Origin: a virus | Taxonomy: Duplodnaviria; Heunggongvirae; Uroviricota; Caudoviricetes | DNA: 64,000 nt | Reading direction: 5' to 3' (one strand) | IMG/VR virus record: IMGVR_UViG_2718218322_000002 | Shown: positions 1 through 6,000 of the stretch, piece after piece | How the letters are laid out: every line of letters begins with the position of its first letter | How positions within the stretch are numbered: position 1 is the first letter of the stretch | Made by a program: the position numbers

Positions 1-3000
1 TCTGCCTTCGCGGGTTTTGAATGGTTCGCGGCGGCATTCATCCATCCACTCGGTAACGCAGATCGGATGATTACGGTCTTTGCGGTAAATCCGGCATGTA
101 CAGGATTCATTGTCCTGCTCAAAGTCCATGCCATCAAACTGCTGGTTTTCATTGATGATGCGGGACCAGCCATCAACGCCCACCACCGGAACGATGCCGT
201 TCTGCTTATCAGGGAAGGCGTAAATTTCTTTCGTCCACGGATTAAGGCCGTACTGGTTGGCGACGATCAACAATGCGATGAACTGCGCATCGCTGGCATC
301 ACCTTTAAATGCCGTCTGGCGAAGAGTGGTGATCAGTTCCTGTGGGTCGACAGAATCCATGCCGACACGTTCAGCCAGCTTCCCTGCCAGCGTTGCGAGT
401 GCTGTACTCATCCGCTTTATACCTCTGAATCAATATCAACCTGGTGGTGAGCAATGGTTTCAACCATGTACCGGATGTGTTCTGCCATGCGCTCCTGAAA
501 CTCAACATCGTCATCAAACGCACGGGTAATGGCTTTTTTGCTGGCCCCGTGGCGTTGCAAATGATCGATGCAGAGTGATTCAAACAGGTGCTGGGGCAGA
601 CCTTTTCCCATGTCGTCTGCCAGTTCTGCCTCTGAACCGCCCCGGAAATCCTGGAGACTAAACTCCCTGAGAAAGAGGTAAACAGGATGACTAAAAATAC
701 TCGTTTTTCCCCCGAAGTCCGTCAGCGGGCGATTCGTATGGTTCTGGAAAGTCAGGATGAATATGACTCACAGTGGGCGGCAATTTGTTCCATTGCCCCA
801 AAGATTGGCTGTACGCCGGAGACTCTGCGTGTCTGGGTTCGCCAGCATGAGCGGGATACCGGGGGCGGTGATGGTGGGCTCACCAGCGCTGAACGTCAGC
901 GTCTGAAAGAGCTGGAACGTGAAAATCGTGAACTGCGCCGCAGTAACGATATCCTTCGCCAGGCTTCCGCTTATTTTGCGAAGGCGGAGTTCGACCGCCT
1001 CTGGAAAAAATGATGCCACTGCTGGATAAGCTGCGTGAGCAGTACGGGGTCGGACCGGTATGCAGCGAACTGCATATTGCCCCGTCAACGTATTACCATT
1101 GTCAGCAACAGCGACATCATCCGGATAAACGCAGTGCCCGTGCGCAGCACGACGACTGGCTGAAGAGAGAGATACAGCGCGTATACGATGAAAATCATCA
1201 GGTGTACGGTGTGCGTAAAGTCTGGCGTCAGTTGTTACGGGAAGGAATCAGGGTGGCCAGATGTACAGTGGCACGTCTCATGGCGGTTATGGGACTTGCC
1301 GGTGTTCTCCGGGGTAAAAAGGTCCGTACGACCATCAGCCGGAAAGCCGTTGCCGCAGGCGACCGCGTAAACCGTCAGTTCGTGGCAGAACGACCTGACC
1401 AGCTGTGGGTGGCTGATTTTACTTACGTCAGCACATGGCAGGGCTTCGTCTATGTGGCGTTTATCATTGATGTGTTTGCCGGATACATCGTGGGGTGGCG
1501 GGTCTCATCGTCTATGGAAACGACATTCGTGCTGGATGCGCTGGAGCAGGCGTTGTGGGCCCGTCGTCCGTCTGGCACCATCCATCACAGCGATAAAGGC
1601 TCTCAGTATGTGTCACTGGCCTATACGGAGCGACTAAAAGAAGCCGGATTACTGGCATCAACAGGGAGTACAGGCGACTCGTATGACAACGCGATGGCTG
1701 AGAGCATCAATGGTCTTTACAAAGCGGAGGTAATACACCGTAAGAGCTGGAAAAACCGTGCAGAAGTGGAACTGGCCACACTAACGTGGGTGGACTGGTA
1801 TAACAATCGACGATTGCTGGGAAGGCTGGGCCATACTCCTCCGGCAGAAGCAGAAAAAGCTTATTATGCTTCCATCGGAAACGATGATCTGGCAGCCTGA
1901 GTTCACAGATAAAACACTCTCCAGGAAACCCGGGGCGGTTCACTCTTTCTCTTCACGGGCGATCTGCTGGTAGTGACGCGTCCAGCTCTGAGCCTCAAGA
2001 CGATCCTGAATGTAATAAGCGTTCATGGCTGAACTCCTGAAATAGCTGTGAAAATATCGCCCGCGAAATGCCGGGCTGATTAGGAAAACAGGAAAGGGGG
2101 TTAGTGAATGCTTTTGCTTGATCTCAGTTTCAGTATTAATATCCATTTTTTATAAGCGTCGACGGCCTCACGAAACATCTTTTCATCGCCAATAAAAGTG
2201 GCGATAGTGAATTTAGTCTGGATAGCCATAAGTGTTTGATCCATTTTTTGGGACTCCTGGCTGATTAAGTATGTCGATAAGGCGTTTCCATCCGTCACGT
2301 AATTTACGGGTGATTCGTTCAAGTAAAGATTCGGAAGGGCAGCCAGCAACAGGCCACCCTGCAATGGCATATTGCATGGTGTGCTCCTTATTTATACATA
2401 ACGAAAAACGCCTCGAGTGAAGCGTTATTGGTATGCGGTAACGCCGCGCTCAGGCGGCTTTGATAGTCATATCATCTGAATCAAATATTCCTGATGTATC
2501 GATATCGGTAATTCTTATTCCTTCGCTACCATCCATTGGAGGCCATCCTTCCTGACCATTTCCATCATTCCAGTCGAACTCACACACAACACCATATGCA
2601 TTTAAGTCGCTTGAAATTGCTATAAGCAGAGCATGTTGCGCCAGCATGATTAATACAGCATTTAATAAAGAGCCGTGTTTATTGAGTCGGTATTCAGAGT
2701 CTGACCAGAAATTATTAATCTGGTGAAGTTTTTCCTCTGTCATTACGTCATGGTCGATTTCAATTTCTATTGATGCTTTCCAGTCGTAATCAATGATGTA
2801 TTTTTTGATGTTTGACATCTGTTCATATCCTCACAGATAAAAAATCGCCCTCACATTGGAGGGCAAAGAAGATTTCCAATAATCAGAACAAGTCGGCTCC
2901 TGTTTAGTTACGAGCGACATTGCTCCGTGTATTCACTCGTTGGAATGAATACACAGTGCTGTGTTTATTCTGTTGTTTATGCCAAAAATAAAGGCCACCA

Positions 3001-6000
3001 TCAGGCAGCCTTGTTGTAAATGTTGCAGGTATCAAGTAAGTAATTAGATGGAGCGCCATAAATTATGAATTCATCGTTTGTCGGGTCCATCTCCATCTCT
3101 TGTCCTATTGCCATTCTTGCGTCAGTGTCGTCAGCGGCGAAGCATAAAACAGCCCACGCACCCATTGTTTTAAAAAGAACTGCAATTGGCTGTGGTTTTA
3201 CTGAATTTGCGTTAGCGCGAAAATCACAAATCGCACTTTCATGAAATTCCATATATCACCTCAAATAAGTGGTTTGCTGCCTAATTTCATTTTCTGGCGA
3301 CCAACACAAGTCATCTTGCTGTCAGTTGTTTGGATTTACGGTAGCCTGCCGCGTAAAGAGCTACATTTGGAAGACAAGTTGAGCCTTCATATTTTCTGGT
3401 CAACGTTGTCAGTGTTATTACTTCTGCTCTCATTGCTGGTTTGCGTTTGCATTGTAAGACCACTCGTGATGGGGTTGGCCTGTGTAGTTTGTCGGAGCTA
3501 ATCGCCTCCTGACTTTGCAGGTTTGCGCGACGAGCTCTACGGCGAGAAGCTGCGGTGCCTTTAAATTCTGTTTTTCTGGACATAGATTCCTCCCGAATAA
3601 ACTTTGGCGATGCAATCTCGAAGCTCCTCCTGAGACGGTTGCTTCGGCATTGCATCCCACAGCTTATGTGGTTGGGTGATCTGGCTTTTCAGCCACGTAG
3701 TCGAGAGTCGACGTTGTTTAAAGAGCCTGCCAGTCTGTTCCATTTGGCTTCCAGCGTCCTGCTGATGGTTAAATAGTACGATATGTACTTCACTTGGTCA
3801 ATACAATTTGTTCTAAAACGGGGCGTTTTTTTACAACGCTTTGTATTTAATAGTATTGTTTTTTAGCGTGGGTGTATTGCCTCGGCGATGTAAGGAGAGA
3901 TCAGAATTGCGTTGTTTAGTGAGTTGTATCTATTTATTTTCCAATAAATACAATTGGTTATGTGTTTTTTTGGGCGAGAGGAAAAGAAAACCCGGCATGG
4001 AGGCCGGGTTGATGATTAGCGGTGTGGCCTTGAGCGATAATGCTCACACACATGTTCAGGATTTCCATGCCTTATCCGTTCATAGGCATTCACATGAACT
4101 TCTCGATCGAATTGGTCATTCAAATTGTATGTAGACATCTGTGTTTTCTCATATTGGCGGCAGCCCTACAACCGCTTGAAAAAATGTACCAGACGCGCTA
4201 AGGTTACATCGCAAATATTGTGTACCTTAACAAGGGCTCCTTTTGGAGGCTCTGGTTAAACAGCATCAATGTCGGACTGGGGAGTTGGACATTGTGCTGA
4301 ATGCTTTTGCATTATTGAGGCCGAACGTAAACCTTCAGAATTGAAGAGATGCGTTCGGCTTCTTCGTTTGTGATATCGTTAGGAATGCCTTTAATCGTTA
4401 CTGTAACCCCTGATTCAGGTCGAAGAACTACTGGAAGATCATAGGTATGAAGTGCATTAGCCTTGCCTTCGACTTTTGTTGGTTCGCCAGTCAAATCTTT
4501 TTCCTCACTGGATTCTTTGTCAATCGGAGTGTATGGGATTTCTTCACCAGACTGGAAAGCTACAAACTTTTTGATTGCACTTTCCATGCGGCTTTTATAT
4601 GCAGTAATGCTGCTGTCGCTAGGCTTCGGCTCAGTTGCGTTGATGTATCGCTCGGCAAGCTCATTCACATCAAGCTGAGTAACATCACCCATTTCCTCTT
4701 CTTGGACTACCGTTAAGAGGCGAGCGGATGAGTTTTTTAAATTTCGAGCGGTGGCCTCCTTCATTATGTTCAGCGACATAAGCTCTTCAAGGAAGTCCTT
4801 GAATGCCTGCACGCTAACGTTTGACTTTGCCATTTGCTCTCTCTCTAAGTTATTGACTCAGATCGAGTTTATCCAGGAATTGATTTGCATGCAAGACTCA
4901 AGTCTTGAGAATTTCCGTTCAAGATCCACTCTCAATAAAAAAGGCCGCACCTCTGCGACCTGAACCGCCCCGGAAATCCTGGAGACTAAACTCCCTGAGA
5001 AAGAGGTAAACAGGATGACTAAAAATACTCGTTTTTCCCCCGAAGTCCGTCAGCGGGCGATTCGTATGGTTCTGGAAAGTCAGGATGAATATGACTCACA
5101 GTGGGCGGCAATTTGTTCCATTGCCCCAAAGATTGGCTGTACGCCGGAGACTCTGCGTGTCTGGGTTCGCCAGCATGAGCGGGATACCGGGGGCGGTGAT
5201 GGTGGGCTCACCAGCGCTGAACGTCAGCGTCTGAAAGAGCTGGAACGTGAAAATCGTGAACTGCGCCGCAGTAACGATATCCTTCGCCAGGCTTCCGCTT
5301 ATTTTGCGAAGGCGGAGTTCGACCGCCTCTGGAAAAAATGATGCCACTGCTGGATAAGCTGCGTGAGCAGTACGGGGTCGGACCGGTATGCAGCGAACTG
5401 CATATTGCCCCGTCAACGTATTACCATTGTCAGCAACAGCGACATCATCCGGATAAACGCAGTGCCCGTGCGCAGCACGACGACTGGCTGAAGAGAGAGA
5501 TACAGCGCGTATACGATGAAAATCATCAGGTGTACGGTGTGCGTAAAGTCTGGCGTCAGTTGTTACGGGAAGGAATCAGGGTGGCCAGATGTACAGTGGC
5601 ACGTCTCATGGCGGTTATGGGACTTGCCGGTGTTCTCCGGGGTAAAAAGGTCCGTACGACCATCAGCCGGAAAGCCGTTGCCGCAGGCGACCGCGTAAAC
5701 CGTCAGTTCGTGGCAGAACGACCTGACCAGCTGTGGGTGGCTGATTTTACTTACGTCAGCACATGGCAGGGCTTCGTCTATGTGGCGTTTATCATTGATG
5801 TGTTTGCCGGATACATCGTGGGGTGGCGGGTCTCATCGTCTATGGAAACGACATTCGTGCTGGATGCGCTGGAGCAGGCGTTGTGGGCCCGTCGTCCGTC
5901 TGGCACCATCCATCACAGCGATAAAGGCTCTCAGTATGTGTCACTAGCCTATACGGAGCGACTAAAAGAAGCCGGATTACTGGCATCAACAGGGAGTACA

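Follow-up and report, generated by a model that had tools for sequence, protein, structure and literature searches.

The stretch of DNA analysed here, 64,000 nucleotides (nt) of IMG/VR virus record IMGVR_UViG_2718218322_000002 (hereafter the window), includes the accessory part next to N in the pL (early-left) operon of a Sakai-type Shiga toxin (Stx) prophage of Escherichia coli O157:H7. The subject of this work is two small genes in that part, ORF83 and ORF122, together with the spacer between them. Based on Pfam, Rfam and the VT2-Sakai annotation, the minus-strand order is N, ORF83, ORF122, cIII, kil and gam. An earlier sequence-only reading had placed two minus-strand open reading frames (ORFs) of 122 and 83 amino acids (aa) at 2450-2818 and 3001-3252, in the accessory slot between N and cIII, and had credited both with good ribosome-binding sites. 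The six-frame ORF list and the annotation pipeline PGAP gave exactly these limits, the Shine-Dalgarno sequences GAGGTG and GAGGA precede ORF83 and ORF122 respectively, and the gene order bears out the slot.

Positions 2380-3700 of the window are 100% identical to VT2-Sakai, to one Stx1 phage and to many O157 Stx2a phages; VT2-Sakai and Stx-phage records label these genes Ea10/Ssb, H0090 and N. Positions 1-8000 are 100% identical to the chromosome of E. coli O157:H7 strain 4276, where RefSeq/PGAP calls the same two coding sequences as both ORFs. We read the region as two mosaic modules, a known lambda block (hairpin, PreS/tL2a and ea10) and a catalogued, uncharacterised, N-linked orphan gene (ORF83), with a probability of roughly 0.8.

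The boundary between the two modules is sharp. In the alignment with lambda 33,489-34,359, identity is 98-99% from about window position 3017 leftward, toward lower coordinates, and this stretch covers the spacer, ea10 and the interval between ea10 and cIII. The breakpoint at ~3017 lies within the last 17 nt of ORF83, and it is because the mosaic junction falls there that ORF83 and lambda ral have these 17 nt and their C-terminal residues (...NKAA*) in common, although similarity between the two proteins is undetectable. Where ORF83 is a single gene here, lambda has three, sieB, orf28 and ral. The downstream end of the lambda-identical block is formed by cIII with its RNA thermosensor (2213-2390, minus strand; Pfam Lambda_CIII; Rfam Lambda_thermo at 2390-2332, 88.5 bits).

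Ea10 and the PreS/LPR1 small RNA

ORF122 (2450-2818, minus strand; 13.8 kDa, isoelectric point (pI) 4.3) is lambda Ea10 (AAA96574.1). The two proteins have the same length and are identical at 121 of 122 residues, the sole substitution being a conservative one, L51 here and V51 in lambda. The protein matches Pfam PF10800 (DUF2528) over profile positions 1-104 of 104 with 158.8 bits against a cut-off of 22 (E = 6.7e-47), matches phrog_646 with E = 4e-71, and is annotated as "Ea10 protein; Ssb" in VT2-Sakai. The DUF2528 motifs EGWPxMDGSxGI and EIDH are present, and E90, G91, W92, P93, M95, G97 and G100 are invariant in this protein and 51 homologues. PADLOC gave no Ea10 match at E <= 1 and NCBIfam gave no hits. 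As in lambda, ea10 lies immediately upstream of cIII between the same noncoding flanks, 98-99% identical through cIII. A terminator-like hairpin with a T-run stands between ea10 and cIII (2404-2426, minus strand) and is identical in lambda. The sequence-only reading had assigned neither ORF to a family. For ORF122 this did not hold, and the gene turned out to be one of the lambda ea genes that the same reading had named as typical of the slot.

Ea10 is an abundant early protein that was formerly mistaken for Kil (PMC3961180), and ea10 is non-essential by CRISPR interference (PMC10695390). Its role was described as incompletely understood by the authors of the PreS study (bioRxiv 10.1101/2024.10.31.621285). 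The homologues recovered are mostly enterobacterial; others come from Oceanobacter and from metagenome bins of Gallionella and Desulfuromonas. In Salmonella diarizonae (L035 1304-3949), a DUF2528 homologue of 42% aa identity directly follows a large gene for an AAA+ (MuB-like) ATPase and lies a few genes upstream of a Mu Gam homologue, a layout that we take for the early accessory region of a Mu-like prophage. Upstream sequences at the Citrobacter, Serratia and Symbiopectobacterium loci (L033, L038 and L039; 36-45% identity) end closely alike, and these loci probably share the arrangement. As a separate observation, ea10 copies of 98-100% identity occur on short or ~48-kb low-coverage contigs of unrelated bacteria (L009-L023, L026, L031 and L032), including assemblies of Pseudoxanthomonas, Shewanella, Pseudomonas, Neobacillus and Kitasatospora. 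Such copies look like contamination with lambda control DNA and not like true prophages.

The spacer between ORF83 and ea10 is 98% identical to the lambda ral-ea10 spacer, which encodes an Hfq-dependent small RNA (sRNA), LPR1/PreS, of ~88 nt that is processed to ~68 nt and has tL2a as its 3' end (bioRxiv 10.1101/2024.10.31.621285). In lambda, PreS is made in the lytic cycle only, activates dnaN translation and supports phage DNA replication (bioRxiv 10.1101/2024.10.31.621285). With the LPR1 limits set by the cloning and deletion primers of those authors (bioRxiv 10.1101/2024.10.31.621285), the window copy occupies 2925-2838 on the minus strand, just upstream of ea10 in the pL operon as in lambda. 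It is identical to lambda at 87 of 88 nt, with the sole change in the terminator loop. The 17-nt seed, TGTTCTGATTATTGGAA at 2890-2874, is the stretch deleted in lambda and is identical to the lambda one. The 3' end is tL2a, with a GC-rich stem GCCCTCCAATGTGAGGGC (2864-2847) followed by the U-tail GATTTTTT (to 2839). Terminator stem, U-tail and upstream hairpin are thus the same as for lambda PreS, and the difference lies in the upstream gene, which is ral in lambda and ORF83 here. Because of the 87/88 identity and the identical seed, the dnaN and replication role would be expected to apply to this Stx phage as well. No family in Rfam 15 covers the spacer or PreS. A consensus scan of the transcribed strand returned three terminator-like elements, at 3012-2991, 2866-2845 (tL2a) and 2426-2407.

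Two side observations concern PreS itself. A 51-aa ORF (phrog_31828; 2904-3059, minus strand) covers the hairpin together with the stop codon of ORF83 and the first part of PreS, and may be the second "hypothetical protein" annotated here in some Stx-phage records. It is probably an annotation artefact, because 933W and phage 86 conserve a region that does not include its N-terminal half. There is also a second body type of PreS, which is longer: it has an insertion of 13 nt, a seed region that differs in part (CGACTCGTTCTGGTTAATCG...) and a different terminator stem, GCCGCTC/GGGCGGC. Its carriers are IMG/VR and Salmonella P22-like phages (L042-L044, L052, L055, L078, L092, L100, L103 and others), in which it is freely combined with different 5' hairpins. 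The targets of this longer type may differ from those of lambda PreS.

The hairpin at the 5' end of PreS

An inverted repeat at ~2927-2957 had been noticed by the sequence-only reading, which regarded it as an element lying between the two genes. The repeat exists and is the longest closely spaced one among 20 in the window. Its perfect arms are 9 nt and not 10 nt, GTGTATTCA at 2927-2935 and TGAATACAC at 2946-2954, since the 10-mers originally quoted pair through a G.T. It is not free-standing. In minus-strand RNA it forms a hairpin with a 14-bp stem and a 4-nt loop (2956-2925), and the last hairpin nucleotide (2925) is the first nucleotide of PreS, which had been missed earlier. The predicted folding energy is -18.2 kcal/mol for this strand and -13.1 kcal/mol for the plus strand. 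The design of the lambda full-lpr1 deletion primers spares this hairpin (primers of bioRxiv 10.1101/2024.10.31.621285). The stem is AT-rich and followed by GAGCAATG, in place of the GC-rich stem and T-run of an intrinsic terminator, and the terminator scan made no call at this position. A dedicated PreS promoter inside the hairpin was considered and rejected, as the -10-like matches are poor and differ among hairpin classes and PreS is reported to be lytic-only.

In other phages this site is occupied by stems of at least four unrelated sequences. Scanning IMG/VR with the conserved core GAGCAATRTCGCTCGTAACYAA gave 137 modules, in which the hairpin stem types are shuffled against the two PreS body types. 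For covariation, 36 modules (20 distinct) were aligned with a covariance model; this replaced a MAFFT alignment of the hairpin classes that was out of register by one column. Across the 36 modules 96.1% of cells are paired, and in 8 of the 14 pairs both partners have changed. Covariation scores 0.527, compared with 0.162 +/- 0.023 after shuffling (0 of 500 shuffles reach the observed value) and at most 0.151 for slid partners, in an alignment that was fitted to the structure by the covariance model and so favours pairing. The repeat goes beyond chance, since other phages keep it through compensatory changes. We conclude that selection acts on the structure of the hairpin only. Its position suggests that it would define and insulate the 5' end of the sRNA and leave a 3' stem on the upstream message.

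Searching 50,697 phage records with the spacer by BLAST returned 375 hits, whose breakpoints are sharp. In many phages, including 933W and Stx2 phage 86, similarity starts just 5' of the hairpin (window 2960; query position 41); in many others it ends right after the U-tract (window ~2839; query position 162). The neighbours vary as well. Stx2 phage 86 has hairpin and PreS directly before cIII without ea10, 933W has a different 156-aa gene upstream of them, and in mEp234 they lie between ORF83 and a downstream 322-aa gene. From these breakpoints and varied neighbours, hairpin and PreS together make up a cassette of ~120 nt. No PreS was found upstream of distant ea10 homologues (<= 76% aa identity) in 14 genomes, and PreS and ea10 are therefore separable modules.

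ORF83 and its linkage to N

ORF83 (3001-3252, minus strand) is the first gene after N and encodes an acidic protein of 83 aa (9.2 kDa, pI 4.24). A terminator-like hairpin followed by TATTTTT lies across its stop codon (2991-3012, minus strand), and in mEp234 it is also annotated as a rho-independent terminator. The protein is identical to VT2-Sakai H0090 and to phage mEp234 gp34 (AFM76313.1), and it matches phrog_2471 over positions 1-83 of 83 (E = 1.4e-61). H0090, mEp234 gp34, phrog_2471 and ORF83 thus form one uncharacterised family without difference among them. Of the two ORFs this is the only truly unassigned one, and its family is catalogued under these names.

The family is tiny, with 19 clusters among 5.8 billion proteins and occurrences in 56 of 50,697 phage records, all from Enterobacteriaceae. 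Searching 1.8 billion representatives with a profile brought in one further true member (P0123). Two other candidates, P0124 and P0125, reached E = 1e-35 and 1e-13 by summing 44 and 12 weak stretches of long tandem-repeat proteins and were discarded as false positives. No match to ORF83 was found in Pfam, NCBIfam or PADLOC (the last at E <= 1), and its family profile matched nothing meaningful in the PDB. BLASTP against lambda Ral gave no alignment at E <= 100, and hhalign showed no relationship to Ea10.

Comparison with relatives that are 70-83% identical gave a ratio of nonsynonymous to synonymous substitution (dN/dS) of 0.06-0.22, indicating strong purifying selection. The proportion of synonymous differences (pS) among the E. 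coli, Enterobacter, Citrobacter and Klebsiella copies is near saturation at 0.73-0.77, compared with 0.16-0.18 for nonsynonymous differences (pN), and 43 of the 83 columns are invariant. In the comparisons with Enterobacter, Citrobacter and Klebsiella copies, pN is given as 0.09-0.18. By these coding signatures, ORF83 is a real gene.

ORF83 directly follows the N-position gene in all eight contexts examined. That preceding gene varies, being a member of one N family or another or unassigned, and what lies downstream of ORF83 also differs. Between N and ORF83, terminator scanning and folding showed neither an intrinsic terminator nor significant structure. ORF83 is for that reason probably co-expressed with N, and would be made with it as an immediate-early product.

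Neighbouring features, rival readings and a proposed model

The pL promoter (3773-3801, minus strand) was transferred from VT2-Sakai, and a sigma-70 scan gave TTGACC-17-TACTAT at 3801-3773. The nutL site (3687-3727, minus strand) was likewise transferred from VT2-Sakai, where it is called "putative N-utilization leftward". The antiterminator gene N, of the H-19B/933W type, occupies 3311-3583 on the minus strand (Pfam N_peptide, E = 2.3e-32; limits from VT2-Sakai and PGAP). The annotated start of N varies among records, with a 114-aa ORF compared with a 90-aa annotated N, and PGAP calls a 60-aa "hypothetical protein" (3561-3743, minus strand) that overlaps the N start and nutL. Between the pL operators and cI, in the position of lambda rexAB, is a 173-aa ORF (4312-4833, minus strand; VT2-Sakai H0093, phrog_2602) with a weak Phage_int_SAM_1 match (E = 0.047), which may be a lysogen-expressed moron. 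Two near-identical IS3-family insertion sequences (IS1203/IS629), each with an ALIL frameshift pseudoknot, lie at window 417-2146 and ~4900-6290. One divides gam into pseudogene fragments (417-644 and 1943-2146) and so stands between pL and bet/exo; the other stands between the 173-aa ORF and cI. VT2-Sakai has neither insertion at these sites.

Several other readings of the region were weighed. It is unlikely that both ORFs are new anti-restriction or superinfection-exclusion genes in the ral/sieB slot, as the sequence-only reading had suggested. The slot is indeed a known accessory region containing ral, ORF83 stands in place of sieB, orf28 and ral, after N and before the lambda-like block, and both proteins are small and acidic like many anti-restriction proteins. 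However, ORF122 is ea10, a conserved lambda gene and not a new one, neither protein has a PADLOC match, and ORF83 has no similarity to Ral. An anti-restriction or exclusion role finds no support here. The exact ORF83 sequence (AFM76313.1, "UDP0060") was among 200 accessory genes screened in ECOR strains for counter-defence and for triggering of cell death (bioRxiv 10.1101/2023.04.06.535777). Ocr, Ral and ArdA, which inhibit type I restriction-modification, scored in that screen, and UDP0060 is absent from its list of phenotype-giving genes (bioRxiv 10.1101/2023.04.06.535777). A published table gives no predicted transmembrane segment for UDP0060, which argues against a SieB-like membrane exclusion protein. 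That ORF83 is a non-coding annotation artefact can almost be dismissed: the lack of a Pfam family, the low confidence of its structure prediction and the absence of a listed screen phenotype would fit this, but its near-saturated pS beside a low pN, its invariant columns, good Shine-Dalgarno sequence and conserved position all speak for a gene. Silence in lysogen RNA-seq, which had been proposed as contrary evidence for both ORFs, would say nothing, given that repression of the pL genes is built into the lysogenic state. The repeat, in turn, is very unlikely to be a protein-binding palindrome at the DNA level or an intrinsic terminator. These readings can point to its length, unmatched by any close palindrome of the window, and to the terminators in its intergenic setting; on the other side, no T-run follows it, the extended stem needs G.U pairs that are available only in RNA from the pL strand, and the stem end coincides with the mapped 5' end of PreS. 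Unrelated stems that interchange with pairing kept fit a structural RNA and not a sequence-specific operator.

For Ea10, the question is the inherited "Ssb" label, which our results do not support. The label is widespread, as lambda and Stx-phage records call the protein ssb or single-stranded DNA-binding protein ("ea10 (ssb;122)" in lambda), and ea10 shares an operon with the Red recombination genes. With 22 acidic and 8 basic residues and a pI of 4.28, however, binding of single-stranded DNA is unlikely. The protein does not match the SSB family (PF00436), DUF2528 being its only hit at E <= 0.1, and the Ea10 family profile matched nothing meaningful among PDB sequences. The AlphaFold2 model, built from 51 homologues, is confident (predicted local distance difference test, pLDDT, 94.6) and consists of a beta-hairpin (strand-strand), four helices and a strand, which is not the five-stranded beta-barrel of an oligonucleotide-binding (OB) fold. 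Foldseek of this model against the PDB found nothing, with no OB-fold or SSB matches, and a structure search of BFVD returned one unnamed viral protein. A genuine single-strand DNA-binding function thus appears highly improbable. Because Ea10 is acidic and has an alpha/beta non-OB fold, it would more likely bind or mimic a host protein, a proposal that we regard as tentative and somewhat short of even. Another reading, that Ea10 imitates an SPFH (HflK/HflC-like) domain and acts with the adjacent cIII to modulate the FtsH protease and so influence the lysis-lysogeny decision, is far-fetched.

The two-module reading also has points against it. The sequence between N and ORF83 would allow a rho-dependent terminator there. 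ORF83 was modelled by AlphaFold2 from a 10-sequence alignment with a pLDDT of 54, and its absence from the listed hits of the ECOR screen gives no help to a counter-defence role. Expression and activity of PreS are known from lambda. The processing or insulating role of the hairpin draws on its position and on covariation, the latter from an alignment fitted to the structure. Finally, the biochemical roles proposed for ORF83 and Ea10 are putative.

With these points in mind, the two-module reading can be put as a working model. In the first module, ORF83 is an acidic cytoplasmic protein that would be expressed with N as an immediate-early product. It may, tentatively, bind a host protein very early in infection and interfere with it, for takeover or for counter-defence. 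The second module is the lambda-like block that begins within the last 17 nt of ORF83 and comprises the stop-codon hairpin, the structure-only hairpin, PreS/tL2a, ea10 and cIII. After inactivation of the repressor, pL transcripts stopped at tL2a and cut at the base of the upstream hairpin would yield PreS, which with Hfq would raise dnaN translation and boost phage DNA replication, as is known in lambda. The hairpin would insulate the sRNA cassette, set its 5' end and leave a protective 3' stem on the N-ORF83 message, and N-modified polymerase would pass tL2a to allow Ea10 expression. A bolder version is doubtful. It would make ORF83 an immediate-early effector that travels with the N position, has an unseen fold and neutralises a host factor or a defence unsampled by the ECOR screen, and it would make the hairpin a required processing or insulating element that renders hairpin, PreS and tL2a portable among lambda-like, Stx and P22-like phages.

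Most of the region is ordinary, and it combines already known biology with one orphan gene. ORF83 is small and strictly N-linked, and nothing here marks it as unusual. The new points are modest: the covarying hairpin, the cassette boundaries, the strict linkage of ORF83 to N, and the evidence against the Ssb label. The main value is therefore corrective. Many Stx-phage records still name Ea10 a single-stranded DNA-binding protein, against a confident model and the charge of the protein, and Stx-phage records leave PreS unannotated, with some putting the 51-aa ORF across it. That sRNA cassettes are exchanged whole between phages is suggested by the covarying hairpin together with the sharp mosaic boundaries. 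The lambda sRNA that boosts replication through host dnaN appears to be present in Stx phages as a functional copy, which could matter for the induction of toxin phages.

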